IMG/VR virus record: IMGVR_UViG_3300031539_000008
Coordinates: 1 to 64,000 of that record
Length of the DNA: 64,000 bases
Reading direction: 5' to 3' (one strand)
From: a virus
Shown: in pieces, positions 8,375 through 56,921 of the stretch
Numbering within the stretch: position 1 is the stretch's first letter
Layout of the letters: every line of letters starts with the position of its first letter
Notes under the pieces: model-generated
What the model was told of the DNA's origin: nothing
The model's database searches: none
What the model saw: the letters and a program-made list of their open reading frames with translations, nothing else
Program-made: the position numbers and the translations under genes

Positions 8375-8701
8375 ATGCCCGACCCAGAGCTGCCCCAGGA
8401 CATCGCCGTGGACAAATCCCACTGCCAGCATGAGCCACTGGAGATCTTTCGGCCCGGATCGCAAAGCCCATGGTCAGATGACCCAATGGCGCTCATCGCC
8501 CTGCTTCGCGGAGGCGGCGCCGCCGTGCTCAAGGTTCGGGTGTGCCGTCACTGCCAGGTGGTCTACTCCACCGTGGAGAATTGGCCTACGCCAACGCACG
8601 AGCTAGAGGCAGAGAACGATCGACTGCGAGAGGAGCTGGATGCGCTCAAGTCAGCGGCGCAGCAGCCGGCGGAGACCGGAGCCTCCACCGACGCGTCGTG
8701 A
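8375..8701 (+). CDS. Small hypothetical protein (CxH/CxxC, coiled coil)
   Basis: ORF 6 nt after TGCTACAAG. Confidence 0.5.
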   Translation: MPDPELPQDIAVDKSHCQHEPLEIFRPGSQSPWSDDPMALIALLRGGGAAVLKVRVCRHCQVVYSTVENWPTPTHELEAENDRLREELDALKSAAQQPAETGASTDAS

Positions 8702-9910
8702 CCTGGCCGGGTTGGGCAGCGTCACGTTCTTGGGGTCGAGCAGGCCAGCCCTCGCCTGGTACTTGATGGCCTCGTCGATCATGTGCAGGCGGTCCTCCAG
8801 TGAGAGCGCATCGAACTTGCGGTAATACTCCGCATTCACGCCCGCAGGCAGAGGCAGGTGACCAGCGCGCGCCAGCTCGATCGCCCGCGCCACCGTGGAT
8901 CGGCTGATCTTCTCCCGGCCGCTGTCGAGCCGGTCGATGACGTGGTTGATCAGGTCATCTACGTGCCACAGGTCCCTGTCGTACACGTCGATGGTGTGGC
9001 GCGCATTTGCCAGCGCCTCCTGTTGGTCGTGCCCCCAGACACCTCGCTCCATGCCTTCTTCCGATGGCTCTTTCCACTCTGCCCGATAGTCACCGTTGGG
9101 TCGCTGGTGCACCCGAATCCGTCGGCCCTTGTACTCCCACTCGGTGTCAGCGGGGTAGCCCGCGAGAAACCTGGGAGGCTTAGCCTTGGTGTCGATGGGG
9201 TTTCCTGACGCGCCGTCATTCTCCAACTGCTTTCGGCCCTTGGCCGTGAGGAGGTAGCGTGGATCCTTGCGACGCGCATCCTTGCGGATGTACCCAAGGT
9301 GCTTGGCTGAGATGATGCTCGTGCCGTTGGCCAGCCCAGTGGTCACGTAGCCCTTCTTGCTGGCGATTCTGACGGCCTTCATGGCCAGGGCATGCAAGTC
9401 TGCACCCTTCTCCTCCAGGGCCCGTGCATGAGCCTCAGCGCTCAGCGGATCCGGCTTGGATGGATTGGCCGTGTGCAGGAGCCTGGCGTCGCCCATCGCG
9501 ATGGCTCCGCTCTCGATGCTGCCTTGGACTGGGTGGTCGCTAGGCAGCACAGCGAACTGGGGCTTGGACTTGAGGCGGTAGACGTAGTGGGGGTTCTTGG
9601 TCCGCAAGGCCCGACGGTCGGCATCGCGAGTGGCGGTGGCCAGATCCTTGAAGCGGCGGAGGCCAGGATTCGGCTTGGGCGCCCGCTCCAGGGCGCGAGC
9701 GATCTGAATCGAGAACTCTGCCGCGTTGTGGAACAGCGCTTTGTCGTTGGCGTCCGCGGCATCGGCCATCGCCTGACAGGCTTCGCAGTGCGCGGCGAGC
9801 AGAGCGCTCATGCCAACGGCGGATCCCTGGCCCGCTCCGTAGAGCATCTTGGCCATCGAGAGCCGCTTGTGGGCTCGGTCGATCCGGTCGGTGCGGCGAG
9901 CGCGTGCCAT
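8651..9910 (-). CDS. NP-segmented basic protein with C-terminal tag (LRRLLRR)
   Basis: Five NP motifs separate modules; tag at terminus. Confidence 0.7.
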   Translation of the reverse strand: MARARRTDRIDRAHKRLSMAKMLYGAGQGSAVGMSALLAAHCEACQAMADAADANDKALFHNAAEFSIQIARALERAPKPNPGLRRFKDLATATRDADRRALRTKNPHYVYRLKSKPQFAVLPSDHPVQGSIESGAIAMGDARLLHTANPSKPDPLSAEAHARALEEKGADLHALAMKAVRIASKKGYVTTGLANGTSIISAKHLGYIRKDARRKDPRYLLTAKGRKQLENDGASGNPIDTKAKPPRFLAGYPADTEWEYKGRRIRVHQRPNGDYRAEWKEPSEEGMERGVWGHDQQEALANARHTIDVYDRDLWHVDDLINHVIDRLDSGREKISRSTVARAIELARAGHLPLPAGVNAEYYRKFDALSLEDRLHMIDEAIKYQARAGLLDPKNVTLPNPARSRRVGGGSGLRRLLRR

Positions 9911-10011
9911 CAGCCCTTGGCCGAGTAGGCGAGCGCGACCAGTTGGAGGGCGAGCACTGCACCGAGCCCCATGATGAGCGTGCCCATCTTGCTGTTGTTC
10001 TTGGCAGCCAT
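9910..10011 (-). CDS. Small membrane peptide (33 aa)
   Basis: MAAKNNSKMGTLIMGLGAVLALQLVALAYSAKG; stop overlaps next start (TGATG). Confidence 0.45.
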   Translation of the reverse strand: MAAKNNSKMGTLIMGLGAVLALQLVALAYSAKG

Positions 10012-10072
10012 GTCCGGAGCTTATGCGGTTTTCTCGGAATATCCAAGGAACACGCCGGTCATGCAGTGCGGG

Positions 10073-10468
10073 CTACAACCGCATAATCCGGCGAAGCGCA
10101 TTGGGATTAGCCTTCTTTTTTGGGTTTCGCTTGGCCACTCTGAGTGCAGGGTGTGACACCACCCCAGTCCAGCCCATGCGCTCGTCCTCGGGAATCACGT
10201 CTCCAATGGCAGACTCAAGACGGTCGCGCAGGGCAATCACCGTATTGGCCTTCCGCTCACCCATGTATCCGTTCTCCCACTGTGCTCGCGCGTGCTCCAT
10301 CACGGCACCGTACAGGCTCGCCATGGCGTTCCGCGATCCAATCAGACGCGTACCTTCGATACGCGTCTCGGGGTGCGTCTCCTGCACACCTTCCAGGTGT
10401 CCCTCAAGCAGATGGTGGACCATCGCCTTGGTGATCGGAACCCGGACCTCCTTCGCATCGCTCGCCAT
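10073..10468 (-). CDS. Hypothetical protein with C-terminal tag (NPNALRRIMRL)
   Basis: Tag; upstream TGGTAGCAT box. Confidence 0.7.
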   Translation of the reverse strand: MASDAKEVRVPITKAMVHHLLEGHLEGVQETHPETRIEGTRLIGSRNAMASLYGAVMEHARAQWENGYMGERKANTVIALRDRLESAIGDVIPEDERMGWTGVVSHPALRVAKRNPKKKANPNALRRIMRL

Positions 10469-10514
10469 GCCCGCATGCTACCACGCGTCCATGCTGGACA
10501 ACATCACCGCAGGA

Positions 10515-11256: not shown

Positions 11257-12627
11257 TCAAATTCGCATCAAGCGGTGGAATGCACTTTTGCGTCTTTTGG
11301 TCGCTTTTGTTTCAGGATTCGGCGTTTTGCTACCAGGAGCGTCCAGGTCCGCCCGGCGGAACAGGTCGTCGAACTTGCCGTCCAGGAACACGGCGTGACC
11401 TGGATCGGTGATGACCGTTATCTCGTGGTCCTCGCGTACAACCTGTCCGATGTTTCCGTAGTGAACGTCCGCCAGCACGATGCCGTGCTCCAGGTAGAAG
11501 CCGAATGTCCCTCCCACTGCGTCCGACCCGTAGCTGTGCTCCATCAACTCCGCCGAGATTCGGCACGCATCAAGAAGTGTGGACAGTCGGTGGATGCCCT
11601 TGAGGTGGCCGAGCATGTCTGCGCCTCGGTGCCACCGATTCACGAAGTCCACGGCGTCCTCGTAGTGGTCCAGCTTCTGAGCGTACTGGACGTTGTGCCG
11701 AAACTGCTCCCGACCCTTGCGCTTGCACCAATCACGGATTCGGCCAGCGGCTTCCTGCCACACGATCAGGTGCTTCTGAAACTCCTTCTCTGCTCTCCCC
11801 AGATACTGGGCCTCAGTGGTCCGCTTGCCCTGGACCCACTTGTCCGCACGCTCGCGGTCCCTGGCTGTAAGCAGGTCCCCCGTGCGCGTGGCCTCCTCGC
11901 GCCAAATCGCGTAAAGGGGGCGCCGTCGGTGCGTGCCAGGCAGGCGCATGATGTCGAAGTAGCGGACGATTCCCTCGGGTAGCTCCCCCAGTGAGAGCGC
12001 CGCCACGATGAATCTAGCCTCGGAGTCGTCCGAGGTGATCTTCATCACCACCCCTGGCGTGTGCGTGCGAAAGACCACGCCGTAGTGCCCCTCTCCAAGC
12101 TCCTGGTAGGGGTGGTCTAGGTAGCCCGGCTTCGGCGTGTAGTCCAGCGGCATCCACTTGGCCCCGACCTCCTTCACCATGGCCTCCCAGTTCTTCGCGA
12201 TGGCTTTGTCGGACCACGGTGGGTTGGGCGTCTGAGATTCACGGCGACCATTTGGCCAGTCGGTCACGCGCACGCCCGCCTTGGTGGTGACTCGATCCAT
12301 GGGCCCCGGTCCCCGGACAAAGGGGCGCTCCATGTCGCCCACCCGTCCGAGCTTCTCCTGGCCGGGCTGCTGCACGTAAGACGACGCGCCGCCGCGCCAG
12401 TCCCACTCGCCACCGTGCTCCTTGAGCTTGGCGCGGCGGTCGAGCTTCCGGCTGATGCTGTATCCCACCTTGGCGAGCTTGGCGTCGATGACATTACGGT
12501 CGGGCCTGTTCTCCCATTGGGGCGAGACCTGGAACTCGATCCGCCGGAACGGGTGATTCGGGTGCTTGACTGCGCCGTCCTCGGTCTCGTAGAGGCTCAG
12601 GCGCCACCAGTATTTCCGGCCAGCCAC
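11257..12627 (-). CDS. Protein-kinase-like fold protein with C-terminal tag (FHRLMRI)
   Basis: LGEGHYGVV Gly loop, VMKIT Lys, E helix, LADVHYGNI catalytic loop, TDPG; start uncertain (12627 or 12753). Confidence 0.75.
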   Translation of the reverse strand: MAGRKYWWRLSLYETEDGAVKHPNHPFRRIEFQVSPQWENRPDRNVIDAKLAKVGYSISRKLDRRAKLKEHGGEWDWRGGASSYVQQPGQEKLGRVGDMERPFVRGPGPMDRVTTKAGVRVTDWPNGRRESQTPNPPWSDKAIAKNWEAMVKEVGAKWMPLDYTPKPGYLDHPYQELGEGHYGVVFRTHTPGVVMKITSDDSEARFIVAALSLGELPEGIVRYFDIMRLPGTHRRRPLYAIWREEATRTGDLLTARDRERADKWVQGKRTTEAQYLGRAEKEFQKHLIVWQEAAGRIRDWCKRKGREQFRHNVQYAQKLDHYEDAVDFVNRWHRGADMLGHLKGIHRLSTLLDACRISAELMEHSYGSDAVGGTFGFYLEHGIVLADVHYGNIGQVVREDHEITVITDPGHAVFLDGKFDDLFRRADLDAPGSKTPNPETKATKRRKSAFHRLMRI

Positions 12628-12632
12628 GGCCC

Positions 12633-12642
12633 ATGCTACCAT
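12633..12642. promoter_or_regulatory. Bidirectional extended -10 element
   Basis: TGCTACCAT 6 nt before ATG 12649 (+); TGGTAGCAT 5 nt before GTG 12627 (-). Confidence 0.55.
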
Positions 12643-12648
12643 CGCTCC

Positions 12649-12825
12649 ATGAGCAAGCGGTTGGAGAAGAAACTCCAGTTCGTGGCCCGCGCTTTCGTCT
12701 GGGAGAACCGCTTTCAGAAGACACGCCAGGTCGTCAGACTCGTGCGTGGCCACGTCAACACGGCCAAGGACGCGAAGCAGGCTGTGAGCTTCTGGGCCCG
12801 GCTCCTGCTGCCCAAGACAGACTAG
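12649..12825 (+). CDS. Small basic hypothetical protein
   Basis: ATG 6 nt after TGCTACCAT; fills gap between flanking genes. Confidence 0.4.
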   Translation: MSKRLEKKLQFVARAFVWENRFQKTRQVVRLVRGHVNTAKDAKQAVSFWARLLLPKTD

Positions 12826-13949
12826 CTGAGCCCGAGTCGCCTGCGGAGAGCTGAGCGGGCTCGCTTGTGCGGGTTCTGCCCCGGTCCTCCGCCCGCCCGC
12901 TTCTTGGCCTCCTCCAGCGCCTTGATGGCCACGTCCATCTTCTTGCTCTCTTCGGCCAGCAGCTCCGCCTCCGCCTTGAGGTCCTCCATCGCCTCCTTTT
13001 GCTCCGGAGGGGACATCGTCATCAGCTTCTCGGGCGTGACGCTGACATCGGCACCGAGGCGCTCGTGGATGTCCTTTTGTAGCTTGGTGCGAGCCTTGGT
13101 CAGCGCGTCAGCCACGAGTTGGCGGTCGGCGAACCCGCCAACTACCTCCATGATCTTCGCAGCCGACATCTTCTCCATGTCTGCCAGGCGGACCAGCTCG
13201 CGGTTCTTCTCGGACAAGCTGTCCATGGCCGCCGCGACTGCGCGAGCGATACGGCGGGCACCGAGGCTGTACCCTGCCGTGCCCGTGGCGATTCCAGGAC
13301 TAATGCCAGCGATCTCCTCTTGAATCTTCGCGGTCGGCCTGACCGACTTGGCAAAACGGCCAAGGCGACGCGACCACTGCTTGCAGTTGTTGGTCACAAT
13401 CCTGTACAGCCAGGTGTAGAACTTCGATTTCCCTTGGAAGGAGCTGATCTTTTCGAGCGCGGTGAGGAAGGCGTTTTGCGTCAGATCCTTGGCATTCTGC
13501 TGGTCACCGATGGACCATCCTTTTCGTCCTGCACGCACGCAGTTGAGGGCGATTTGGTAGACCCTGTCGTAGTAGAGGGAGTAGAGCGCGCCAAATGCCT
13601 CCTGGTTGCCTGCCTGAGTTTGACTGACCAGCTCGACGATGGCCTCTTCATCCTCGCGGTCTGGCACTTTGGCCTTGGGATTCGTCCAGAGAATCGGGAC
13701 CGCCAGCATCTCCCGATCCGATCCCATGTCAGCGAGCACTCTGGACTGAAGCTGCGACGCCAATCCCACCGCCTCGTCGAGTAGGTGCACGTCTCCAGAA
13801 TACTGAGCATGCTCAGCAGCCGCGACCGCGTGCTCCAGGGCGTGAAGGCCAGCAGCCGGCGCGCGTAGGCGACTGAGCTTTCTGGCCGACTTGAGGTAGC
13901 TCTTGGCGACGTGCGCATGCACGGGCTGCGTCGGGTTGGTCCGAGCCAT
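12822..13949 (-). CDS. ECF-type sigma-70 factor with N-terminal helical module and C-terminal tag
   Basis: GNQEAFGALY..YYDRVY, DLTQNAF, SFQGKSKFYTWLYRIVTN (region 2); LSEKNRELV...MSAAKI (region 4); ends QNPHKRARSALRRRLGLS. Confidence 0.85.
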   Translation of the reverse strand: MARTNPTQPVHAHVAKSYLKSARKLSRLRAPAAGLHALEHAVAAAEHAQYSGDVHLLDEAVGLASQLQSRVLADMGSDREMLAVPILWTNPKAKVPDREDEEAIVELVSQTQAGNQEAFGALYSLYYDRVYQIALNCVRAGRKGWSIGDQQNAKDLTQNAFLTALEKISSFQGKSKFYTWLYRIVTNNCKQWSRRLGRFAKSVRPTAKIQEEIAGISPGIATGTAGYSLGARRIARAVAAAMDSLSEKNRELVRLADMEKMSAAKIMEVVGGFADRQLVADALTKARTKLQKDIHERLGADVSVTPEKLMTMSPPEQKEAMEDLKAEAELLAEESKKMDVAIKALEEAKKRAGGGPGQNPHKRARSALRRRLGLS

Positions 13950-13956
13950 CGGCGCC

Positions 13957-13966
13957 ATGGTAGCAT
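13957..13966. promoter_or_regulatory. Bidirectional extended -10 element
   Basis: TGGTAGCAT 7 nt before GTG 13974 (+); TGCTACCAT 7 nt before ATG 13949 (-). Confidence 0.6.
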
Positions 13967-13973
13967 CCACAAC

Positions 13974-14981
13974 GTGTTCCTGACGACAGACCAGCCGGAT
14001 GGGGCCCCTTCCGAGACCTACGACTTCGTGGGCAAGTACCGCGGGGGGCACTTCTACATCAAGCTAAAGTCCCCGCCGAACGCGACAACGGCGAGCTATC
14101 GCCTGGACTACAGCAAGGCGCGCAGGGGGAAATGGGGGAGCCACCTCGACTTCCACCTGTTCGCAGAGACCCTCGCACTGGCCATGCGCGAAATGAAGTG
14201 CAGGGCCGATTGGGAGCTGTGGCAGGACGAGTGGGTTGCTTCGGACAGTCTCATCCACCGGGTGGCCAAGAGCAACATCGCGTGGCACATCCACCAAGGA
14301 TACTCCATGGGCCCGTGGGGGTTGGTGGGCATGGCGGAGGAGGCTGACAAATGGTTCAAGCACCTGGAGGTGACCCGCGGCGCGAGCGTGGTCCAGGAGT
14401 GGTGGCGCGCCCTGACATTGGACCAAAAGAGCGCTTTTCTGCGGGACGTTTGGATTTGCGAGGGGAAGGAAGTCGAGGGGCCCGCCGAGCCGTCCCCGCC
14501 ACCGAAAAGGTCCAAGCCGGATTCCGGAAAAAAATCGAAGGCCAAGACGATGCGCCATCGTGTCCGCGTGAAGGCGTCCGACACCCCGATTGTCGACCGC
14601 CTATTCGGCCACTGCAAGAAATGCCGTGTCTGCCTGGCCTACGATGTGAGCCACGGCTGCTGCACGGTCTGCGGACGACAGCTCACCCCCAACCCCGAAG
14701 ATTGGTACAAGGAGTTCATCGGGGACTGGATTCTTTCCCTCTACCCCTGGGGAGGTGCATGGAGATTCGAGCTTTACAACGAGAAAATGGACCAGGAACT
14801 CACCGGCAGCGAGCCCACGCGCTCGCGTGCTCTGGCGGCTGCCCGCCGCATCGTGATGCGCTGGCGGGCGAAGGAGAATCCGCAGCGAAAGAAGGTGGTC
14901 AAGTCACGGAGGTCCCAGACGAAACGCAAGAGGACCGAGAAGGACCGCGCGGATGTCTTCCGAAGGATGATGAAGCTGTGA
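13974..14981 (+). CDS. Multi-module protein (Zn ribbon) with C-terminal tag (VFRRMMKL)
   Basis: CKKC..C/CCTVC; NP motifs; tag. Confidence 0.65.
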   Translation: MFLTTDQPDGAPSETYDFVGKYRGGHFYIKLKSPPNATTASYRLDYSKARRGKWGSHLDFHLFAETLALAMREMKCRADWELWQDEWVASDSLIHRVAKSNIAWHIHQGYSMGPWGLVGMAEEADKWFKHLEVTRGASVVQEWWRALTLDQKSAFLRDVWICEGKEVEGPAEPSPPPKRSKPDSGKKSKAKTMRHRVRVKASDTPIVDRLFGHCKKCRVCLAYDVSHGCCTVCGRQLTPNPEDWYKEFIGDWILSLYPWGGAWRFELYNEKMDQELTGSEPTRSRALAAARRIVMRWRAKENPQRKKVVKSRRSQTKRKRTEKDRADVFRRMMKL

Positions 14982-15535
14982 AGCTGTTTCACATCACCTA
15001 CGAGCGGAATCTGCCCGGCATCGCGCAGGATGGCCTTGTTCCCGGCCACACCTCGCTCTACCCATCCGGACTACACCACCACCTGCGCGGAGCGATCTTC
15101 CTGACCAGCCCAGATGGGGTGTTCTTCTGGTACACGAACTCCGAGGAGGCGATGATTCACGTCTCGGACGATCCGCAGGCAGATGGCTACACGCCAGTGG
15201 TGCTGCGCGTGCCCGAGCCAGAGCATGGCTGCGCGTACGACGAGTTGGGGACCGATGACGCTAACGCGCCTGCGTTTCGCTGTGTCACGTCCATCCCGGC
15301 CAGCAAGATCGAGCTGTGGGATGGTGAGCACTGGCTCCCGATCTCGCAGTACCAGCGTCTCGATACGTCATCGTCCTACGACGAGGACGGCTATTTCTCC
15401 GGGGACTATCCACTGCTGCCGGAGTGGAGGGATATGCAGAAGAAGGCGACGGCCAAACGGGACCAACATGCCAAGCGGTCATCTCCACGTCGAGTGAATC
15501 GCTCGGCAGCCCTGCGCAGAATGATGAAGCTGTGA
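14978..15535 (+). CDS. ADP-ribosyltransferase-like (H-x-T...IFLT) protein with C-terminal tag (ALRRMMKL)
   Basis: LFHITYERNLPGIAQDGLVPG, IFLT, VVLRV, IPASKI pattern of Tpt1/KptA-like ART folds. Confidence 0.6.
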   Translation: MKLFHITYERNLPGIAQDGLVPGHTSLYPSGLHHHLRGAIFLTSPDGVFFWYTNSEEAMIHVSDDPQADGYTPVVLRVPEPEHGCAYDELGTDDANAPAFRCVTSIPASKIELWDGEHWLPISQYQRLDTSSSYDEDGYFSGDYPLLPEWRDMQKKATAKRDQHAKRSSPRRVNRSAALRRMMKL

Positions 15536-44228: not shown

Positions 44229-44260
44229 GCCCTTGGTCTCTTTCTCTCGTGCAGACTGTC

Positions 44261-46787: not shown

Positions 46788-47467
46788 GGAATCCGTAGCT
46801 TTCGCTTCCTCTTCGGAGTCTTCTTCTTCGCCACCTTCTTCTTGGCCTTCTTCTTGGCCTTCTTCTTTTTTCCTCCGCGTGGAACCTGTGTCCACTCGCC
46901 GGATGCACGCATCTCCACGTCCGATGGAGCGTACCGCTCGGTCCACTCGCCAGAGGAGATCATTTCGCGTGACTTCTTGTGCGCCGCCTTGTAGCCGGCG
47001 TCTGGATTGCTGGCCGTGCCAGAGAGCAGGACCGACTCGGTATGCGGGTCGATCAGGCCCCACTGGATCTGACTCTTGGCGCCGGGGTTGGGCACCCAGA
47101 CATATGCCAGCTCGGACGGGTTCTTGGTGAACCGCGTGAGACTGCCAGGCGTGCCCATCACGATCCCCTTCCAGTAACCGAGCAACGCATGCGAGCGCTT
47201 GTCTCCCATGCCCTTGGGCCCACAGCTCATGCGTGGGCTGGCCGCGTATCCGCGAGCCATCGCGGCGTTGGCCCCGGCCGAGCACGAGGTCAGATCGTAC
47301 TTGCTGGCCCCCATTTTTCCCTTCGCGCTCCGGCTGCGAATCGGGACGTAGTAGGCACCGCGCGCCTCGCTCCAGCGGATGCGCGCCTGTCCTCCGGCGA
47401 CGCCGCGGCCCTCCTTGCGAACTGCGGCAAGCGCCTTGGCGAAACTGACTTTCTGCTTTTTGGCCAT
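46784..47467 (-). CDS. Basic NP-motif protein
   Basis: KKKAKKKAKKK tail; NP and GMG motifs. Confidence 0.65.
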   Translation of the reverse strand: MAKKQKVSFAKALAAVRKEGRGVAGGQARIRWSEARGAYYVPIRSRSAKGKMGASKYDLTSCSAGANAAMARGYAASPRMSCGPKGMGDKRSHALLGYWKGIVMGTPGSLTRFTKNPSELAYVWVPNPGAKSQIQWGLIDPHTESVLLSGTASNPDAGYKAAHKKSREMISSGEWTERYAPSDVEMRASGEWTQVPRGGKKKKAKKKAKKKVAKKKTPKRKRKLRIP

Positions 47468-49356: not shown

Positions 49357-50058
49357 TCAGATCCTCATCAGTCTGCGCAGCGTTTTCCGCTGCTCGGGTT
49401 TCAGCTTTTTCTTCGGCATGCGTATTCCGCCGCCGACCGATTCGCCCGCGCGTTGGGCGAGCCAGTTGCAAAGGCCGCCGGGGGATTCGACATCTGGACG
49501 TGCCTCCATGATGGCGAGACAGGCGCTCATACTGCCGCCTGGAATGTCGACAGGATTCCCCTCGTAGGGTCCGACGCCGTATCTGGCGGTAATCTTCTGA
49601 GCCACACGAAGCAGGCTCCGAGCTTCCGTGACTCCGTTTTGTCCAAGTTTGCGGGCTGGCCCAGGGTCGTCTCCAGAGTGTTCCGCTTCGCCCACGGCCA
49701 CCGCTGCGTATTTGATGGTGTCCAGGGCTCCGTTGAAAGCCACTGTGAAATCTTCCACCCGCTGAGCCTTCTCGAAAGCCTTGGCGGCGAGACGCATCGC
49801 CTTGCGGTACCGATCCGCGTGTTCACTGCGTCCTGGGTTGGCTAGCTGCGGATCGAACCCGTACCTCCGCATGATCGAGAGGTTGTTCTTCACCGCCCGC
49901 CAGTCGCTCGGCGTCTGCGACATGAACACCGAGCCCTTCCCGCCCGGGGACGATAGCTTCCAATGACCAGCCTTGCGCAGCGTGGCTGTCCATCCCTGCG
50001 CCTTGGCCTGCTCGATCACCTCGCGCATGCGCCTGGAAAGGTCTGACTTGCGGGACAT
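49357..50058 (-). CDS. HicA-like N-domain + helical module + C-terminal tag (LRRLMRI)
   Basis: GW......GHWKL.SP......TPSDWR; NP boundaries. Confidence 0.65.
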   Translation of the reverse strand: MSRKSDLSRRMREVIEQAKAQGWTATLRKAGHWKLSSPGGKGSVFMSQTPSDWRAVKNNLSIMRRYGFDPQLANPGRSEHADRYRKAMRLAAKAFEKAQRVEDFTVAFNGALDTIKYAAVAVGEAEHSGDDPGPARKLGQNGVTEARSLLRVAQKITARYGVGPYEGNPVDIPGGSMSACLAIMEARPDVESPGGLCNWLAQRAGESVGGGIRMPKKKLKPEQRKTLRRLMRI

Positions 50059-50066
50059 GGATGGGG

Positions 50067-50402
50067 CTACCGAGCGAAGACCTCGGCGCGTGTGTGAAGT
50101 CGGCCTTCATCGAACTCGATGTGGTCGCGTTCAACCTGATCTACCAACTCGGCCGGGCAATACCTGCGGAACGGAAGCATCTCCCGTGCCGCGTGCTCTG
50201 CGACGAGGTCTGGCGGAAAGCCAAGGTTCCGCAGCATCCGATGCTCACGGCGCAACTTGTGTTGTTGAGCGTTGGGCAGATACGGAAACAGCGAATCCTC
50301 CTCAAATGCGAAGTGGCATTCCAAACAGCACGCCACATCCATGCGGCAACTATTCATCTTGTCTTTGCAGGCTCCGCAACATGGTGGCTTGACTGGCATC
50401 AC
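50067..50402 (-). CDS. Hemerythrin-like (HHE) small protein
   Basis: HFAFEEDSLFP, EH, HAARE, DH. Confidence 0.5.
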   Translation of the reverse strand: MMPVKPPCCGACKDKMNSCRMDVACCLECHFAFEEDSLFPYLPNAQQHKLRREHRMLRNLGFPPDLVAEHAAREMLPFRRYCPAELVDQVERDHIEFDEGRLHTRAEVFAR

Positions 50403-51127
50403 GTACCTCTCATGGCCTTCTCCAGGATACCCCTGGTTTTCTTGCTACTCGTGCGATTCTTCCTGGATTTCGTCCTCTTCTTCGTCGGGTTCGGGATGAG
50501 ACCCTCTGCCGCCAGTGAGGTAAAGTTACGTGGAGAGACCACCACGTGATCCAACACCGGGATTCCAGTCATCCTGCCGACCTTGACCATGCGTTGTGTC
50601 AGATCGATGTCAGCCTCGCTTGGCGAGGAGTCGCCAGTGGGATGGTTGTGTGCGATGACCACGCTGTGAGCCTGCCGACGGATCGCCTCCCGAAACAACT
50701 CTCTGGGGTGCACCTCCACCGCCGACAGGCTGCCAATGGCGATTCCGAGCACGTCGATCACTTGCTGGCGTGCGTCGAGCAACACGACGACGAAATACTC
50801 CTGCGGCTTCTTGCCGATGACCCTACGCACGAGTTCTGCTACCTCGGATGGCTGCCTGACAGTCCCCGCGCGGTCCTGACAGGCCGCGTCACACAAGCCA
50901 GCAACCGCAAATACAGCAATCACCTTCTTGGCCTGGGCAGTGGGAACCCCAAGATGGGTGAGCGCACTCATGCTCGCGTCGGAGAGTCCACGCCCGTCGG
51001 GGAAGTTCTCGGCCAGGATGGCTGCGCTTTTCTTGGTCAGCCCCAACTCACGCAGGCGGTCCACGAGCTTGCCTCGCTCCCGAATCTCCAGGAGTAGATC
51101 GTTGTGTATCGGTCGACCTCTCGGCAT
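50399..51127 (-). CDS. radC: RadC-like JAB-domain protein with C-terminal tag (ILEKAMRGT)
   Basis: QEYF...LD, VHPRELFREAI, AHNHPTGD..PS.AD, LDHVV. Confidence 0.9.
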   Translation of the reverse strand: MPRGRPIHNDLLLEIRERGKLVDRLRELGLTKKSAAILAENFPDGRGLSDASMSALTHLGVPTAQAKKVIAVFAVAGLCDAACQDRAGTVRQPSEVAELVRRVIGKKPQEYFVVVLLDARQQVIDVLGIAIGSLSAVEVHPRELFREAIRRQAHSVVIAHNHPTGDSSPSEADIDLTQRMVKVGRMTGIPVLDHVVVSPRNFTSLAAEGLIPNPTKKRTKSRKNRTSSKKTRGILEKAMRGT

Positions 51128-51540
51128 CAGGTTCCTCGCATCGCTTTACGCAGGATCGCGCGGGCGTCTGGATTATTCTTCGCATTTTTCTTGGCGGTCT
51201 TTTTGGCCTTACTGGGCTCTTGGGCGATACGCCCTTCCGCCAGCTCGATCATGCTATCCTTCTCACCGGCCCGCTCATCCAGACGATCCTGGTCGCGCGC
51301 GGCCGTGTACGCCTGGATGTAGAAGCTGTACTCGACCTTGTAGATGTGGCCGTTGACCTTCGTGTAGAGGCCGGGGATGACTCGGTCGTTCAGGCTGTCC
51401 CACAGCTCATGCCACTGGTAGTCGTCTGGGCCGTAGTCTGGCAGCGCCTGCTGTTGCTTGCGGGGGTCTGGGATTCTGGCGCTGCGTCGGTCGAACGACG
51501 ACATCTCCCGATACGGCGATGTGACAACCGGAGCCATCAC
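51127..51540 (-). CDS. Hypothetical protein with C-terminal tag (NPDARAILRKAMRGT)
   Basis: Tag; coupled ORF. Confidence 0.7.
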   Translation of the reverse strand: MMAPVVTSPYREMSSFDRRSARIPDPRKQQQALPDYGPDDYQWHELWDSLNDRVIPGLYTKVNGHIYKVEYSFYIQAYTAARDQDRLDERAGEKDSMIELAEGRIAQEPSKAKKTAKKNAKNNPDARAILRKAMRGT

Positions 51541-52331
51541 GTCCCTCGCATCGCCTTGCGCAAGATCGTCTTGGCGTCGGGGTTCTTCTTGGCCACCTTC
51601 TTCTTCGCCTTCTTCTTCGCTTCTTTCCTCGCTGGCTTCCCCCAGTTGAGTTCATCCACCAGCGAGATGGCCTTGTCGAAAGCGTCGGCACCACGAAAAG
51701 TCTCGTAGATCTTCGTCTTGTCGCGCACCGCGTATACGCCATGCGGGAGCACGTCAATCCGTACCATCGGGGATGCAGCCTTGGCCCTGGGGTTCTTCAC
51801 CCTCTTCTTGGCGCGCTTGCGCGAGGCTTTGCTCGCGGGGTTGCTGCGCAGTTTCAGCATGTCCTCCACCTCGGAGGATATGGAGCTGGCGCCGTCCATG
51901 ATGGAGTAATCGTCGGCGTGGTGTCCCTCGTTCCAAGCGGCGTGCGCATCTTCCAGGGCTAGGATGGCCAGGACTTTGCGATGTGACCCGTCTGTGGTTT
52001 CACGGGCCTTTTCAAGCGTCTTTTCAGCTTGCTTGAGGTGAGCCTTCGCCAGCCTGGCATGGGTCTTCTTGGCGGGGTTCGATGTCTTTTTGCGCGGGTT
52101 CTCGTACCCCTCGCCCTCCACGCCCCCGGCCTCGCCCCACCCAGACTCGCCGCCCGGCCACTCGTCCGAGAGCTTGGCCCCGAGCCTGGATGCCTTGCGG
52201 TCGCCGCCCTTGGGCTCGAATCCTCCACCCCGTCGCCACTCCCAGTACGCCTCCAGGTGTTCGCCGGCGGCGTGGTAGTCCTTGCGCTTGAGGGCGCTGG
52301 TGGCCATGTCGAGTGCTGCCTGCGGGTCCAT
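51537..52331 (-). CDS. NP-segmented protein with C-terminal tag (NPDAKTILRKAMRGT)
   Basis: Five NP motifs; shared helical module. Confidence 0.75.
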   Translation of the reverse strand: MDPQAALDMATSALKRKDYHAAGEHLEAYWEWRRGGGFEPKGGDRKASRLGAKLSDEWPGGESGWGEAGGVEGEGYENPRKKTSNPAKKTHARLAKAHLKQAEKTLEKARETTDGSHRKVLAILALEDAHAAWNEGHHADDYSIMDGASSISSEVEDMLKLRSNPASKASRKRAKKRVKNPRAKAASPMVRIDVLPHGVYAVRDKTKIYETFRGADAFDKAISLVDELNWGKPARKEAKKKAKKKVAKKNPDAKTILRKAMRGT

Positions 52332-52891
52332 CAGTACACCAGTCCTCTCTCCGTCACGGTTAGCCGACCGCCGCTGATGGCGATGGCCTTGGGCGGGCTT
52401 CCAGGCGACATCGCGATGCGCACGTTCTTGCCCAGGGTGTGGATGTAGTCGTCCGTCATTCCGTCCGACTTCCATTTGGAGCTGCGGTACACGATGTGAA
52501 CCGCGCGACCGTACGGCTTGAGCTGGTAGTCTTGGAGCTTGAGTTCGCCCATCTGCACGGGGTCACGCGCCGCCCATCGACGAAATAGCTTGGCCGACTT
52601 CTCCGCGCCGGCCGCCTTGAACAGCTCCTGGTCCGGACCGAGATGGCCGACCCATCGCACGTGCTTCCCAGGGAAGATCAGCAACGTCTTCAGCGTCGGG
52701 CTCCAATAGAGGTTGGGGCCCTCCCCCGTGAACTTGTGGACCTCTTCCTGCCCGTCGCTGTCGCGCTCGACCTTGATCTCCAGGGCAGTGCCAAGCAGTG
52801 CCACGTCGCCTGGATTCGGCAGGCGTGACGGCTTAGGGCCGGGGTTCCCCGCAAGTAGCAGGCACGGTAGGCAGGGGTTTTGGCGTGGCAT
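52331..52891 (-). CDS. Hypothetical protein with N-terminal NP repeats
   Basis: QNP, GNP, PNP, then globular domain. Confidence 0.65.
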   Translation of the reverse strand: MPRQNPCLPCLLLAGNPGPKPSRLPNPGDVALLGTALEIKVERDSDGQEEVHKFTGEGPNLYWSPTLKTLLIFPGKHVRWVGHLGPDQELFKAAGAEKSAKLFRRWAARDPVQMGELKLQDYQLKPYGRAVHIVYRSSKWKSDGMTDDYIHTLGKNVRIAMSPGSPPKAIAISGGRLTVTERGLVY

Positions 52892-52900
52892 CTTCGTTTC

Positions 52901-53101
52901 TCAGCGTCGTCGGGATCCCTTTTTCGGCCGCGACCGCGGCCCACCGGAATACCGTCAGCCAATCCCCGGGCCGCATGACGCGTCCCCCACTCCCCTGAAG
53001 TCGTGGAAGGACTGTGGTGCGATTTGTGGTGCGATTTGTAGCGTGGAGACGGTCGCCGCGTTGGCGCGGTCCACATCGGCTTTGCTTGGTTGAGTAGCCA
53101 T
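52901..53101 (-). CDS. Candidate small selenoprotein (in-frame TGA 52957-52955)
   Basis: MATQPSK...RGVGDASCGPGIG-UGA-RYSGGPRSRPKKGSRRR; perfect GGCCGC-GGTC-GCGGCC hairpin downstream of the UGA. Confidence 0.55.
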
Positions 53102-53664
53102 CAGGGGCGGCTTGTATCCTCATATTGTACGGGGAGCTGCGGGTCGCCGGAGCCAGGACCTGGCCCGGTGTGCTTCGTGCACACCCAGATGCCTTTGACG
53201 TACGCGAACTGCTCGCAGTCACCTGCGTCTATAGGCGTTGATCTTCCGGCTGATAGGGAACGCGAACGAGAGCGCGAACGAGAGCGCCGACGCCCAACCC
53301 CGATCCTTGGGCCCGGTGCTGTTGGTCCATGGGGGAACAGGCATCCGGTAATCATGGACCCTTGGCACTCAGCCAAATCGTGAGCACTCAGCTTGCTCGC
53401 CATCCACTGTTTCTTACACCAGGCTAGACCACTGGAGATGCACTTGCCGCGGGGGCGGCTAGGCGTGGATCCTCCGCGTGAGCCCGCCCTCCCCTTGCCC
53501 CGAGCGCCGACTCCACGGTGCAGAGTCATCTTGACCGGTGCCCCCATGCCTCGCGGCACGATCGGGATGCGGACGTGTCCATCTTGGATGTGAGAACGAG
53601 CCGCGTCGGTGTCCCATGCTCCGAGGCCGACTTGACGCTGATACAGAGTGGGGTTGTTGGCCAT
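53101..53664 (-). CDS. Multi-GxG-motif Cys-rich basic protein
   Basis: GLGA, GMGA, GVGA, GVG; RS repeat. Confidence 0.6.
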   Translation of the reverse strand: MANNPTLYQRQVGLGAWDTDAARSHIQDGHVRIPIVPRGMGAPVKMTLHRGVGARGKGRAGSRGGSTPSRPRGKCISSGLAWCKKQWMASKLSAHDLAECQGSMITGCLFPHGPTAPGPRIGVGRRRSRSRSRSRSLSAGRSTPIDAGDCEQFAYVKGIWVCTKHTGPGPGSGDPQLPVQYEDTSRP

Positions 53665-53665
53665 C

Positions 53666-54097: not shown

Positions 54098-54102
54098 TTT
54101 TC

Positions 54103-54876
54103 TTACCTCCGTTGTTTTCCGCGCAAAGTCAGGCCGCGCTTACCGATTCCGCCCTGGTCGCATCCCGCATCGATCCAGTAGGGCATGCTCCTGGTGGGGC
54201 ATCCAGCAAATGGCTCGGCGTAGAACTGCGCGCTCTGCCCGATCCAGTACGGCTGTTGCCCGATAGGATAGGGCACCCGTCGCTGTCGCCTTTTTCGTCC
54301 TCGACGAAATCCATAATACAGGCCGACCGGATTGGTGGTGGGTGCGCAGCCGATGTCCCCGGGATTTGGCCCGATGTACGGGTTGCATGCCGCGCCATAC
54401 CCTGGTCCTGGAGGCACCGGTGGCCGAAGAGGCCGGCGACGCGCGGGAATGGGAGTGGCAGCGGGCGGTGCAGCGGAGGTCTGTCCGACGCCAGGGCTCG
54501 TGCAGTCGCCTGTGCAGTCGCCTCCGCACTCACACTCGTGTCCAGATGCGCAGGACTCACAGCAGTACCCTTCCCACCATGGCTGGTGATGGTCCACCGC
54601 AGGGGGGCAGTCTGAGTGACCGCCGCATGGCCGCTCAGGCAGACAGATGGGAAGCGCGCCGCGAATCGAGTAGGGCGTGTAGATTCCACTCTCCATCGCC
54701 AAATAGCTGCGCTGGAGACCCGGATGCTGGACAGGCTGGCAACCGGGCCGATACGCCGGATAGGCGGGCATTTCGGTATCTCCGCTCCAGGTCCCGTGAG
54801 GCGCGCCCATTCCGCGGCGGTAGGTCAGGGGGATTCTGCGCATCGTCTTGTTCTTCCACTTGTCTCCACAGGGCAT
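54103..54876 (-). CDS. Cys/Pro-rich GxG-motif protein
   Basis: CCESCASGHECECGGDC; RRGMGA. Confidence 0.6.
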   Translation of the reverse strand: MPCGDKWKNKTMRRIPLTYRRGMGAPHGTWSGDTEMPAYPAYRPGCQPVQHPGLQRSYLAMESGIYTPYSIRGALPICLPERPCGGHSDCPPAVDHHQPWWEGYCCESCASGHECECGGDCTGDCTSPGVGQTSAAPPAATPIPARRRPLRPPVPPGPGYGAACNPYIGPNPGDIGCAPTTNPVGLYYGFRRGRKRRQRRVPYPIGQQPYWIGQSAQFYAEPFAGCPTRSMPYWIDAGCDQGGIGKRGLTLRGKQRR

Positions 54877-54880
54877 TTTT

Positions 54881-55219
54881 CTACCTCTTCGGCTTCGCGA
54901 GCGGGCGATCGTTGTAACAAACCCACCGATAGCCGTTGAAGTGTGGCGTGAACCCGGGGAGGCAGGTCACCCCCCTGGTGGTAGCGGACGCGGCGATGCG
55001 GCGACTGGGAGGCGCTGGCAGTCTGGCGCCCACGCCGTACTGCGTTGGGTGCATGAACACCTGCGGGCGGTAGGGGACTGCGTAGTCGATCACGGTATCG
55101 GTCCACGGGTCGTAGCTCGCACCGACGCCGCGGGTGCTCCCTCCGCCGAGCAGACGCTTGGCAGACTCGACTTCGCGCAGCATGCGACCGCGCCCTTTGT
55201 CACCGCTTGGGTTGTTCAT
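54881..55219 (-). CDS. MNNPS-leader GVG-motif peptide with Cys tail
   Basis: MNNPS; two GVGA; C...WVC. Confidence 0.6.
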   Translation of the reverse strand: MNNPSGDKGRGRMLREVESAKRLLGGGSTRGVGASYDPWTDTVIDYAVPYRPQVFMHPTQYGVGARLPAPPSRRIAASATTRGVTCLPGFTPHFNGYRWVCYNDRPLAKPKR

Positions 55220-55261
55220 GGGAACTCCTGGTCCCGATGCTACCGCGGCGGAGCTGTACCC

Positions 55262-56218
55262 TCAAATGTTCATCATGCGACGCATGAACGAGCCACGCGT
55301 TGCCTTCTTCGGGGCGCTCGCAGCTCGTTCCTTCGCGGTCTTCTCTACGAGCGCACACGCGGATGCAAGCGCACGCCGGGCTCCCCACGCTGTGTAGCTC
55401 CCAAGAGCCGTCTCGTCTGGGCCGATCACCGTCGCCATCGCCATGCCGTCATGCTCTGCGATGTCTCCGCCTTCGTACGCGCCAAGCGGTTGCACGTCGA
55501 TGGTGTAGCTGCGGCAGGCGAACAAGCCGCCGTTGCCCTTCACGGTACGCATGCGCACGCCAGCGGGAACTGGTGGCTGCGGTGGAACACGTTTGCGGCT
55601 GCGGTGTTTCGCCTGCTCGTGCATCAGGTCGATCACTGCCAGCGCCTCCAGGTGGGGGAACGGCTGGTCCGAGGACCATTCTGCCAACACGGCACCGGGT
55701 CCGTCTTTGATCTGGCGCGCAATCTGGACGTTTGGCCCCTGCACAAGTATATGACGGCCTCTGTACTTGTAGATGGTTCCGTTTTCGTCCTTCTGGACGG
55801 TGAGCGGAGTCTTGTTCTCGCGGAATCCTCCGTAGAGCAGGTCGTCTTCGGCGGCCTCCCCTGGATTCTTTTGGACCTTCTCCCAGAACCCCCACTCGAT
55901 TGTTCCGTCGGGCATCTTTCGCCCGCTGAAGTAGTGATGTGCCGGAGCCGTCTTTTGCAGCCCGGAGGTGATGTGGTCGAAAAGGGTATCAGCCTGGCGC
56001 TGCCAATCGCGCGGAGCCTCCTCGTACCACTCATCCCCGTCTCCACGCGCATCGGCCTCGGTGATGTAGAGATAGACGCTGCCAAGCTGTCCGCGTAGGG
56101 CACGATCTGCGTCCGGGTCAAGATGGCGCAGCGTCCCCATCAGCTCGACGATCGCCTCACCCCGAGGCCCGTCTGGCATCTGGATGAACACGGGTCCGGG
56201 CTTGGCTCGCTTACGCAT
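55262..56218 (-). CDS. Multi-module protein with C-terminal tag (FMRRMMNI)
   Basis: KNP boundary; tag. Confidence 0.7.
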   Translation of the reverse strand: MRKRAKPGPVFIQMPDGPRGEAIVELMGTLRHLDPDADRALRGQLGSVYLYITEADARGDGDEWYEEAPRDWQRQADTLFDHITSGLQKTAPAHHYFSGRKMPDGTIEWGFWEKVQKNPGEAAEDDLLYGGFRENKTPLTVQKDENGTIYKYRGRHILVQGPNVQIARQIKDGPGAVLAEWSSDQPFPHLEALAVIDLMHEQAKHRSRKRVPPQPPVPAGVRMRTVKGNGGLFACRSYTIDVQPLGAYEGGDIAEHDGMAMATVIGPDETALGSYTAWGARRALASACALVEKTAKERAASAPKKATRGSFMRRMMNI

Positions 56219-56219
56219 T

Positions 56220-56921
56220 TCACATCCTGGTCAGAACACTGGGCAGGCGTCCACGGGATTTGGCGGCTTTCTTGCCGCCGTTGACCTGTGGCTTGGGAGC
56301 ATAGTAGCGCTGTTCCCACTGCTTTGCAGCGCGCTTGGCCGCACTTATGGCGGTCTGCTCGCTGCGGTAGGGCTTGGAGGACGTGGCGGCGAGCTTGCTC
56401 TTTCGGTTGTCTTGCACCCAGAAGTGCCAGACGGTTCCGTCTCCGTCGACAGTGATGGAGAAGTCTTGCTCCGCCTCTGGATTGCGTCGTCTTCCAAGTC
56501 CACGCACAGACCAGTAGATCGGGTATCGGGCTCGTGAGTCGGCCCTGATGCGTCCACAGACTCGTGCAGCCCGGACAGAATCTCCGTGCCGCTTCGTTTG
56601 GTCGTCCACACACTGGTACCAGGGATAGGTGCCTGGCCCGCGTCGAGCCTTGTCTACCTTGCGACGTGCGGGGATGGTTTTCTGCTTCCTGGCCAGCTCG
56701 CCCGCAGCGCGCTGCAAGGTCTCTGACATGGCGAAGTCACCCGCGTTTTCCGCCTCGTAGATCAGGTCCGAAAGCCGGTCATGGTAGGCGACATAGCTCT
56801 CACCTTTCTTTCTGCGCGGGACGGCGGGACCACGTGGAATCAGCGCGGTTATTCGGCGCCTGGCAACCTTCTTGGTCGCCTTCTTTCTGCCCTTGCTAAC
56901 CTTTTTCTTGGATCGGGCCAC
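56220..56921 (-). CDS. Basic multi-module protein (RRNP; degenerate tag SVLTRM)
   Basis: RGLGRRRNP; beta3-alpha module. Confidence 0.6.
   Translation of the reverse strand: MARSKKKVSKGRKKATKKVARRRITALIPRGPAVPRRKKGESYVAYHDRLSDLIYEAENAGDFAMSETLQRAAGELARKQKTIPARRKVDKARRGPGTYPWYQCVDDQTKRHGDSVRAARVCGRIRADSRARYPIYWSVRGLGRRRNPEAEQDFSITVDGDGTVWHFWVQDNRKSKLAATSSKPYRSEQTAISAAKRAAKQWEQRYYAPKPQVNGGKKAAKSRGRLPSVLTRM

Follow-up and report, generated by a model that had tools for sequence, protein, structure and literature searches.

Why should a sigma factor, a RadC-like protein and a histone-H1-like protein of one virus end in the same short basic peptide? The question arises from a window of 64,000 bp, bases 1-64000 of the linear 102,604 bp IMG/VR virus record IMGVR_UViG_3300031539_000008 (completeness 71% by CheckV), which comes from an uncultured bacterial virus of ∼ 100 kb. 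An earlier note had proposed that about 15 unrelated proteins share a C-terminal tag that loads them into the virion. We called 198 genes in the record with our own codon-usage model; motif counts refer to the resulting protein set (31,167 residues from 102.6 kb).

A strictly C-terminal motif

All the endings listed in the earlier note are found at the gene ends concerned, the SVLTRM of one protein being weak. A strict expression, [LFMI][RH][RK][LIMAFV][ML][RK], matches nine times in the 31,167 residues, and all nine matches are located 1-2 residues before the stop codon; there are no internal matches, although modules are shuffled at Asn-Pro (NP) junctions. A looser expression gives 18 matches, 14 of them C-terminal. 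In 2,000 within-protein shuffles the mean number of C-terminal strict matches was 0.0065 (maximum 1). Sequence, coordinates and statistics all bear out the observation. Including looser variants, 15 proteins are tagged. As the note had supposed, the carriers are unrelated: BLASTP among the 15 proteins without their last 30 residues finds no mutual similarity except one ∼ 70-residue module. The four copies of ILRKAMRGT/ILEKAMRGT differ in synonymous codons, and thus selection acts on the tag at the protein level. The association with NP also holds (37 NP in tagged proteins versus 6.3 expected; 65 versus 43 in untagged proteins). The tag is real, far above chance, strictly C-terminal, selected as protein, portable and flavoured by virus lineage.

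The tail often starts with Asn-Pro, followed by a Lys-rich tract and an 8-residue amphipathic helix, A-Φ-Φ-R-x-Φ-M-R, which terminates in L/I or GT. Basic residues are frequent after NP (NPKKK, NPRKK, NPTKKR). The net charge is +8.5 over 26 residues, and the helical hydrophobic moment of the last nine residues is 0.80, compared with 0.31 in other proteins. I, L, A and M make up a small hydrophobic face, and the mean hydrophobicity is negative. Of the 31 distinct tags, 28 have Arg at position 3, 23 have Met at position 6, and at position 7 there are 25 with Arg but only three with Lys. That Arg and Met are nearly fixed beside a Lys-rich tract favours a single, specific reader. Several tagged proteins also have polybasic N-termini.

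Carriers, gene blocks and relatives

The tagged genes form two blocks, at 8.6-15.6 kb (6 of 10 genes) and 39.9-57 kb (9 of 28), and are on the minus strand unless stated. The first block begins with 8651-9910 (419 aa, no family match, five NP junctions), whose last nine residues, SGLRRLLRR (8654-8680), are preceded by NPARSRR. It continues with 10073-10468 (131 aa; NALRRIMRL at 10076-10102, following KRNPKKKANP) and 11257-12642 (461 aa, kinase-like motifs by eye only; SAFHRLMRI at 11260-11286). The ECF-type sigma factor 12822-13970 (382 aa) has N- and C-terminal extensions around a sigma domain at residues ∼ 106-308 and ends in a variant tag, ALRRRLGLS (12825-12851), following GQNPHKRAR. Two plus-strand genes complete the block: 13911-14981 (∼ 356 aa, start uncertain, missed by our own gene caller; DVFRRMMKL at 14952-14978) and 14978-15535 (185 aa, ART-like by eye, its sole match, to DUF7002, being weak at E 0.006; AALRRMMKL at 15506-15532).

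The second block contains 39944-42379 (811 aa, two N-terminal HTH domains; RLSRMMRA at 39947-39973) and the modular protein 42405-43946 (513 aa, conserved helical core domain at residues ∼ 146-245, eight NP junctions; DILRKAMRGT at 42408-42434). The linker-histone-like protein 47476-48840 (454 aa, 35% Lys+Arg, AKKK repeats) has the variant tag TILRKFSKI (47479-47505), and 49357-50028 (223 aa, no family match) ends in KTLRRLMRI (49360-49386). In the RadC-like JAB protein 50399-51127 (242 aa), the domain (91-210) is followed by 32 residues comprising NP, a basic tract and GILEKAMRGT (50402-50428); here, as in the sigma factor, the tail is added beyond a complete domain. The adjacent 51127-51537 (136 aa; tail ...KNNPDARAILRKAMRGT, tag at 51130-51156) and 51537-52331 (264 aa, five NP junctions; tail ...KKNPDAKTILRKAMRGT, tag at 51540-51566) both end in ILRKAMRGT. 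The latter and the sigma factor, in its N-terminal extension, share the ∼ 70-residue module, which 49357 shows weakly. Last come 55262-56218 (318 aa; SFMRRMMNI at 55265-55291) and 56220-56921 (233 aa, basic), whose end, PSVLTRM (56223-56249), is degenerate. Two neighbours have no tag: 46784-47467 (227 aa) ends in a polybasic tract only (net +17 over 26 aa), and 52331-52891 (186 aa) ends in GGRLTVTERGLVY. The ECF sigma, RadC and HTH assignments of the earlier note are upheld; for its labels 'kinase', 'ART-like' and 'HicA-like', searches of Pfam, NCBIfam and PDB sequences gave nothing significant, and these are by-eye motifs only.

The blocks have as neighbours spike, fibre and collagen-like genes and a series of proteins anchored in the membrane by their N-termini. 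The tag is absent, as already noted, from the small genes at 21-39.9 kb (0 of 54) and from the fibres of this virus, and also from its spikes. It is likewise absent beyond 57 kb (0 of 25 genes at 57-73 kb, 0 of 63 at 73-102.6 kb). In at least 8-11 proteins of the virus, Lys/Arg follows an N-terminal membrane helix; all of these lack the tag. The tag is restricted to gene blocks that hold virion-type genes. A promoter k-mer search gave nothing clear and yielded no expression timing.

Related metagenomic viruses have lineage-specific versions of the tag. This virus (G000) uses ILRKAMRGT and xLRRxMRL, while L018 and L019 carry AIMRSFMRL on six adjacent genes. Homologues of 42405 in metagenomes bear tag variants; in its core-domain family, at least 23 of 152 representatives end in the same type of tag and 16 of 152 in a related ...LKNRLLR, which we take to look especially like the end of the P22 scaffold. 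Orthologues of 39944 in L013 and L023 end in DAFRRLMRL, that of 49357 in L012 ends in LLRKAMRI, and the family members of 56220 in L018 and L019 have the canonical lineage tag (AAAIMRSFERL). The untagged 46784 has an L012 orthologue (2368-3052) with a full tag, ...NPDARAILRNAMRGT, and the orthologue P0044 of the ART-like protein 14978 (53% identical) has an acidic end without the tail. A homologue of the untagged 52331 lies directly upstream of the tagged cluster in L019 too, and another is present in the untagged relative L034. The tail is portable, being gained or lost between orthologues. The more distant relatives L029, L034 and L046 have a polybasic tail only, so the basic tract may be the ancestral functional part.

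Proposed docking into the particle and rival readings

We tentatively favour, as the best reading, that the tail is a portable C-terminal docking module which recruits its carriers into the virus particle. Asn-Pro would be a likely helix or turn cap, and the Lys-rich tract would be flexible and contribute unspecific affinity for DNA or acidic surfaces. A single partner, shared by all the tails, would bind the two-turn amphipathic helix, which would have to end the chain (last residue L/I, or GT). This partner is most likely encoded by the virus and part of the particle during assembly; the inside of the shell, a scaffold-like protein and a protein at the inner membrane are candidates. Any soluble protein that acquires the tail would thereby enter the particle or its DNA-protein core and travel with the genome to the next cell; the carriers include the sigma factor, HTH proteins, RadC and the histone-H1-like protein. 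We infer three things: that there is a single reader, that it is part of the virion, and that packaging and injection of the cargo take place.

The position of the tagged genes, solely beside genes for spikes, fibres and membrane proteins, speaks for loading. RadC, ART and kinase domains are characteristic of proteins whose injection along with phage DNA is known or predicted (PMC5512222), and the carriers include such domain types: RadC and, by eye only, kinase-like and ART-like. Of the earlier interpretation, the portable protein-level signal on unrelated proteins stands, and the loading into particles is consistent with the data but unproven. Scans of ∼ 125 proteins from the 102.6 kb recognised no gene for a capsid, scaffold, portal, terminase or prohead protease, no HK97-type coat protein was found in the record, and no reader of the tag emerged. 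Among jelly-roll proteins the best conserved, at 71855-72553, is a possible capsid protein or fibre head; its VIA Z-scores are ≤ 7.6 and mixed, and its BFVD matches are collagen-like fibre proteins.

Against docking, a polybasic tract plus an amphipathic helix is also the make-up of a generic binder of anionic lipids or DNA. The tract and helix might bind anionic phospholipids directly and so bring the proteins to the membrane of host or virus; a particle that contains membrane could take them up as a consequence. The pattern Φ-Φ-+-+-Φ-Φ resembles the membrane-targeting sequence of MinD. The high hydrophobic moment and net charge fit such an anchor, as does the mutual exclusion of the tag and N-terminal membrane helices. 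We nevertheless consider it unlikely. The near-fixed Arg at two positions, the Met at position 6 and the lineage flavours exceed the demands of lipid binding, the tag has a small hydrophobic face and a negative mean hydrophobicity, and a membrane-held sigma factor or DNA-condensing protein would be hard to understand unless it were being packaged. The MinD sequence is a transplantable C-terminal lipid-binding helix; a lone MinD helix binds too weakly by itself (PMC8155659).

Somewhat more doubtful is a nucleic-acid tether, in which linker-histone-like tails would keep proteins that act on DNA attached to the chromosome of virus or host; the NP-K-K turns are reminiscent of SPKK turns, and bridging or oligomerising the carriers would fall to the terminal helix. 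The Lys-rich tracts with basic residues often after NP, the H1-like carrier 47476, the many carriers that act on nucleic acids (sigma factor, HTH protein, RadC) and the retention of the polybasic tail alone in distant relatives are in line with it. It leaves unexplained the obligate position at the chain end, the hydrophobic face and the fixed Met. Moreover, since several N-termini are polybasic too, DNA affinity does not need a terminal helix.

Degrons usually combine a strictly C-terminal position with a flexible stretch of 15-30 residues. The tail could accordingly be a signal for an AAA+ machine, with the motif and the unstructured initiation tract read by a host ClpX-type unfoldase (compare the MuA-like basic C-terminal degrons) or a viral Cdc48/PAN-like ATPase so that removal, uncoating or translocation is timed. 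A single-domain AAA+ ATPase of the classic clade is encoded at 90281-91720 (best PDB matches p97, Cdc48 and AFG2 D2 domains, E 1e-36; NCBIfam CDC48, PAN), and in L019 an AAA gene lies 1.4 kb from the tagged cluster. In G000 the AAA gene is 34 kb away from the nearest tagged gene, however, and the two AAA proteins are 25% identical in the ATPase core with no similarity in the N-domain. ClpP, Lon and FtsH-type proteases were not found in the 102.6 kb, and destroying abundant proteins that condense DNA or belong to the late block is no obvious strategy. We regard this explanation as improbable.

A secretion signal of, for example, the positively charged type IV kind is very improbable: some type IV substrates do have a C-terminal, Arg-rich signal like the tag, but no scan of the record gave a secretion-system gene, the carriers are DNA-binding, cytoplasmic-type proteins, and the flavour of the tag tracks virus lineage.

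Comparison with known systems

The P22 scaffold gp8 is one of the closest known systems; like the tag, it places a basic amphipathic helix at the extreme C-terminus. The gp8 helix (R293, K296) docks on acidic residues of the coat N-arm, and removal of the 11 C-terminal residues abolishes coat binding (PMC9965877). The same helix is also used for loading foreign cargo into P22 shells. In P22 it belongs to a helix-turn-helix on one dedicated scaffold protein that exits the head, whereas the tag is a single two-turn helix on ∼ 15 unrelated proteins, and its binding to a coat is putative.

Encapsulin cargo proteins are likewise steered into a protein shell, although unrelated, by short C-terminal loading peptides on flexible linkers (PMC8346489). 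These peptides are Gly/Leu-rich and non-basic with a motif unlike the tag, and the HK97-fold shell is encoded beside one or few cargo genes; no such shell gene is seen here. The T4 capsid-targeting sequence (IPI-III, Alt) is also one short peptide common to unrelated proteins, which are packed into the head and injected, including the host-modifying enzyme Alt (PMC5512222). It is N-terminal, acts via the scaffolding core and is removed by the prohead protease, whereas the tag is C-terminal and no prohead protease was found.

With helices of the MinD/FtsA type the tag shares a short, transplantable C-terminal amphipathic helix with basic residues (PMC8155659), and its hydrophobic moment is high. 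It differs in its smaller hydrophobic face, in its residue-specific conservation (Arg, Met) and virus-lineage flavours, and in its presence on many unrelated proteins of one virus. Finally, RadC, ART-like, kinase-like and DNA-binding modules also occur together in the polyvalent proteins of phages and conjugative elements, which are modular, recombine and are predicted to reach the host together with DNA (Iyer et al. 2017; PMC5512222). A MuF or zincin peptidase domain was not found in this virus. Here the modules reside mostly in separate genes, each with the same tail, and not in one giant polypeptide.

The C-terminal tag and its carriers

The earlier note claimed that about 15 otherwise unrelated proteins of the virus under study (G000) end in a shared basic tract and amphipathic terminus, and every one of the endings it listed was found at the end of its gene in our gene calls. 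These comprise 198 genes called by codon usage, the model having been trained on this record, to which 13911-14981 (plus strand, missed by the model) was added. The 102,604-bp IMG/VR record (G+C ~63%, CheckV completeness 71%) is linear and has no end repeats; no tRNA genes were found in the window, which covers the first 64 kb of it. The strict pattern [LFMI][RH][RK][LIMAFV][ML][RK] occurs nine times in 31,167 residues and all nine matches end one or two residues before the stop codon, while 14 of the 18 matches to a looser pattern are C-terminal. The enrichment over shuffled controls that the note had anticipated is pronounced: 2,000 shuffles per protein gave a mean of 0.0065 strict C-terminal matches, with a maximum of one. 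The four ILRKAMRGT/ILEKAMRGT copies differ in their synonymous codons, in agreement with the proposed conservation at the protein level. Because the codons differ and the protein bodies are unrelated, recent duplication or gene conversion is ruled out as the origin of the tag.

Over the last 26 residues the mean net charge is +8.5 in tagged proteins versus −0.4 in the others, and the helical hydrophobic moment of the last nine residues is 0.80 versus 0.31. In 31 distinct tags collected from G000 and related viruses, the successive core positions are A; I, A or V; L, M or F; R (in 28 tags); R, S or K; A, M, F or L; M (in 23); and R (in 25, with K in only 3), after which the chain ends in L or I, or in GT (consensus A-Φ-Φ-R-x-Φ-M-R). 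Arg is favoured in the helix although the neighbouring tract is Lys-rich, which points to a residue-specific constraint rather than to composition.

Not all of the protein labels proposed in the note were sustained. Family searches identified an ECF sigma factor (12822-13970, domain ~106-308 of 382 residues), a RadC/JAB protein (50399-51127, domain 91-210 of 242 residues) and an 811-residue protein with two HTH domains (39944-42379); in these confirmed carriers the tail is appended beyond a complete domain. The 'kinase' (11257), 'ART-like' (14978) and 'HicA-like' (49357) labels were motifs judged by eye: searches of Pfam, NCBIfam and PDB sequences gave nothing significant for these proteins, the sole match being to DUF7002 (E 0.006). 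A 454-residue tagged protein contains AKKK repeats and 35% Lys+Arg.

Asn-Pro, module shuffling and occurrence in relatives

In 9 of the 15 carriers an Asn-Pro (NP) dipeptide precedes the C-terminus by 11-34 residues. Tagged proteins contain 37 NP where 6.3 are expected (~6-fold), one Asn in three preceding a Pro; the untagged proteins contain 65 versus 43 expected. Seven different hexamers encode NP and a flanking DNA consensus is absent, so that NP too appears to be selected at the protein level; for the same reasons a DNA-level recombination site is ruled out. NP marks the junctions between shuffled modules in the tagged proteins (8651-56921) and may act as a helix or turn cap, as a cleavage point or as an SPKK-like DNA turn. 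Trimmed of their last 30 residues, the 15 carriers show no similarity to one another by BLASTP, except for one NP-bounded helical module of ~70 residues. It is common to three otherwise unrelated tagged proteins: the sigma factor, where it is part of the N-terminal extension (residues 11-75 of 12822-13970), 51537-52331 (residues 84-156) and, weakly, 49357-50028 (residues 61-120). This module constitutes direct evidence of module shuffling.

The 513-residue tagged protein (42405-43946) contains a conserved helical core domain of ~90 residues (43122-43511, minus strand; ITRxGKLGGxGFLSK...YGYRSCLGS...YGGxGSFGP), also found in loci L006-L049. It belongs to no Pfam family, and Foldseek retrieved no PDB fold similar to its model, a small helical bundle (pLDDT 67). 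An exhaustive profile search yielded 283 database representatives of the family, on contigs ranging from high-GC and phage-like to low-GC and giant-virus-like (one named GVMAG). Endings were surveyed in 152 proteins of the family (150 listed matches of the 283, plus earlier homologues) with explicit patterns, a generic rule for amphipathic basic ends being too crude. Among the matches listed, at least 23 of the 152 end in the G000 type of tag, and 16 of the 152 have the related ending ...[IL]K(N/R)(R/K)(L/V)(L/M)R, commonly a few residues past an NP.

Metagenome homologues of the 513-residue protein end in VLRRAMRGT, AVLRNAMRGT, SFRRMMRL, GLRSMMRL or SLLRGT, and high-GC metagenome contigs (L012, L013, L015, L023) each carry several different tagged genes. 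In a more distant pair, L018 and L019 (the latter from an 80-kb contig), six adjacent genes have ...KNPxxAKAIMRSFMRL endings or close variants, a lineage-specific flavour of the tag. Still more distant contigs with the core domain (L029, L034, L046) have polybasic tracts alone as endings, and the tag is absent from the low-GC, giant-virus-like contigs with the core domain in the viral_contigs collection, where a back-translated ILRKAMRGT pattern also gave no match. The tag is portable. The L012 orthologue of the untagged, polybasic 46784-47467 has a full tag, relatives of the weakly tagged 56220-56921 from its own family bear the canonical tag in L018 and L019, and a 53%-identical orthologue of 14978-15535 has an acidic end and no tail. 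The protein 52331-52891, which ends in GGRLTVTERGLVY, precedes the tagged cluster in both G000 and L019; since the untagged L034 has it too, it is not tag-specific. An ESM Atlas search with it gave nothing above noise.

GenBank phages gave no DNA match to the record and only one weak, partial match to the 513-residue protein, and the virus appears to have no cultured or GenBank phage relatives. In the literature library searched, no paper contains the tag strings. The motif and the virus group are undescribed, although terminal docking peptides, the kind of element that the tag probably represents, are already known; the observation itself is strong.

Gene neighbourhood and the particle

Tagged genes make up 6 of 10 at 8.6-15.6 kb and 9 of 28 at 39.9-57 kb. 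The tag is absent from all 54 small genes at 21-39.9 kb, as the earlier note had observed, and likewise from the 25 at 57-73 kb and the 63 at 73-102.6 kb. A k-mer promoter search of 45 intergenic gaps revealed no common motif. The tagged blocks adjoin virion-type genes, further spike-like genes among them. A fibre or head-decoration-like protein is encoded at 19070-20185 (PHROG E 3e-29) and a collagen-like (GPTGPx) fibre of 319 residues at 59822-60781 (minus strand; the codon-usage caller's version is shorter), the N-terminal motif of which matches the one earlier reported on the spikes. The blocks also adjoin a run of eleven consecutive or near-consecutive proteins, extending from 56923 to 64000 and on to record position 70445 (L004:1-6445, in a later stretch of the record), that have one N-terminal membrane helix and, directly after it, a Lys/Arg cluster (at least eight by rule, eleven by eye). 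The rest of each is an unrelated, often acidic domain, and none has the C-terminal tag. This run suggests a membrane-containing particle. Terminase, portal, HK97 capsid, prohead protease and FtsK-type packaging ATPase were all absent from ~125 proteins searched against Pfam, PHROGs or NCBIfam, in a genome of which ~29% may be missing.

The best-conserved late protein (record 71855-72553, L004:7855-8553) has 26 homologues at 47-82% identity, and no match in GenBank phages or in the viral_contigs and genome_contigs collections. Its model has conserved N-terminal helices, a Gly-rich disordered stretch and a C-terminal jelly roll (pLDDT ~80). Foldseek gave no PDB match at E ≤ 0.001; in VIA-wide (Z ≤ 7.6) capsid proteins of membrane-containing viruses are mixed with unrelated β-sandwiches, and in VIA-align the capsid proteins of HCIV-1, HHIV-2, P23-77 (VP16 and VP17), SPV1 and PBCV-1 reach Z 5.8-7.4, scores equalled by unrelated β-sandwiches. 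BFVD matches are collagen-like fibre proteins with low TM-scores. In view of these comparisons we dropped the label 'major capsid protein'; the protein may form part of the capsid or the head of a fibre. Co-folding of this protein (A3) with the tail (A1, residues 480-513) scored 0.00, which is not evidence either way.

Some further features of the region are recorded here. The jelly-roll protein shares an R-G-[MV]-G-[AQN] motif after a basic leader with several small Cys-rich proteins (43950-44381, 46084-46458, 53101-53664, 54103-54876), three of which have similar endings (GLTL[RK]G[KR]xRR or alike); motif and endings may represent a second shared signal. A chagasin-family (I42) cysteine-peptidase inhibitor is encoded within a tagged block (45636-46067, minus strand), and a 152-residue protein with a Cys...His...Asp pattern, seen by eye and without a family match, beside the jelly-roll genes (L004:6442-6900, minus strand); the two may form an inhibitor/protease pair. 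The products of adjoining genes at 6582-7648 (minus strand) are an Fe/Mn superoxide dismutase and a protein resembling dual-specificity or tyrosine phosphatases, and a thioredoxin (Pfam match) is encoded elsewhere in the record.

Possible function and known systems

That the tag sits strictly at the chain end, is conserved at specific residues, has lineage flavours and is portable is evidence for one specific reader co-evolving with it. Because tags are limited to virion-type gene blocks, and given the nature of the carriers, we favour recruitment of the carriers into the particle as the best reading, at a little short of an even chance. Proteins injected with phage DNA typically have RadC and similar domains (PMC5512222).

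The anatomy of the tail also fits a lipid-binding helix like that of MinD, whose membrane-targeting sequence is likewise a basic, C-terminal amphipathic helix of 8-12 residues, but such a helix binds weakly as a single copy (PMC8155659). It fits a DNA tether of the linker-histone type as well. Both partly overlap with particle recruitment, since membrane or DNA binding could be the route of entry. A third reading that the anatomy allows is a recognition signal for an AAA+ unfoldase: ClpX-type degrons combine a C-terminal motif with an unstructured initiation region, to which the tail could correspond. The motif is not LAA-like and presumably differs from the MuA class of ClpX degrons, and family scans of the record found no viral ClpX or ClpP. 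G000 encodes a single-domain, classic-clade Cdc48/PAN-like AAA+ ATPase, unusual in a bacterial virus (record 90281-91720, L005:6281-7720, minus strand; E 1e-36 to the D2 domains of p97, Cdc48 and AFG2 in the PDB), with a 190-residue N-terminal region without assignment. This ATPase is a candidate reader of the tag. An AAA gene also lies beside the L019 tagged cluster, but the two proteins are only 25% identical in the ATPase core.

Particle recruitment may be extended to a general 'zip-code' for virion cargo, although we consider this rather unlikely. Large bacterial viruses of an uncultured lineage, with many membrane-anchored structural proteins and no recognizable HK97 head genes, would dock and inject any soluble protein that acquires an NP-polybasic-ΦΦRxΦMR tail; sigma factors, DNA-condensing proteins and enzymes that modify DNA or proteins could be exchanged through module shuffling. 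In a bolder variant, the virus's own Cdc48-like ATPase would read the tail and thread cargo into preformed particles. If the tag is a loading signal, it marks proteins that are delivered to the cell before any gene expression, and engineers would gain a naturally evolved tag of 25-30 residues with which arbitrary proteins could be packed into virus particles. C-terminal docking peptides, of which the examples so far are on single scaffold proteins, on proteases and on encapsulin cargo, would then include a system with many cargoes, found in viruses that have neither a cultured member nor recognizable head genes. Should the reader instead be a membrane, DNA or an unfoldase, the ~15 proteins, most without a family assignment, would still form a co-regulated functional class defined by the tag.

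Among known systems, the T4 capsid-targeting sequence is N-terminal on its cargo, whereas all copies of the G000 tag are at the extreme C-terminus; the T4 signal is cut off by the prohead protease, a family with no member among the ~125 proteins searched in the 71%-complete record. Polyvalent proteins combine at least two disparate effector domains per polypeptide, usually with MuF or a zincin peptidase, whereas tagged proteins have at most one recognized domain and no MuF or zincin peptidase match in Pfam and other family scans. Encapsulin cargo carries loading peptides (PMC8346489) that are, like the tag, short C-terminal peptides on a flexible linker, but of Gly/Leu type rather than A-Φ-Φ-R-x-Φ-M-R, and G000 has no HK97 or encapsulin match (Pfam, PHROGs), with the caveat that a shell gene may lie in the missing ~29% of the genome. 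A C-terminal basic helix of the P22 scaffolding protein docks on acidic residues in the N-arm of the coat protein (PMC9965877), and the G000 tag is also a C-terminal basic amphipathic helix, with a moment of 0.80 and Arg as its third and seventh residues. The P22 scaffold helix and the encapsulin cargo-loading peptides are the nearest precedents of the tag.
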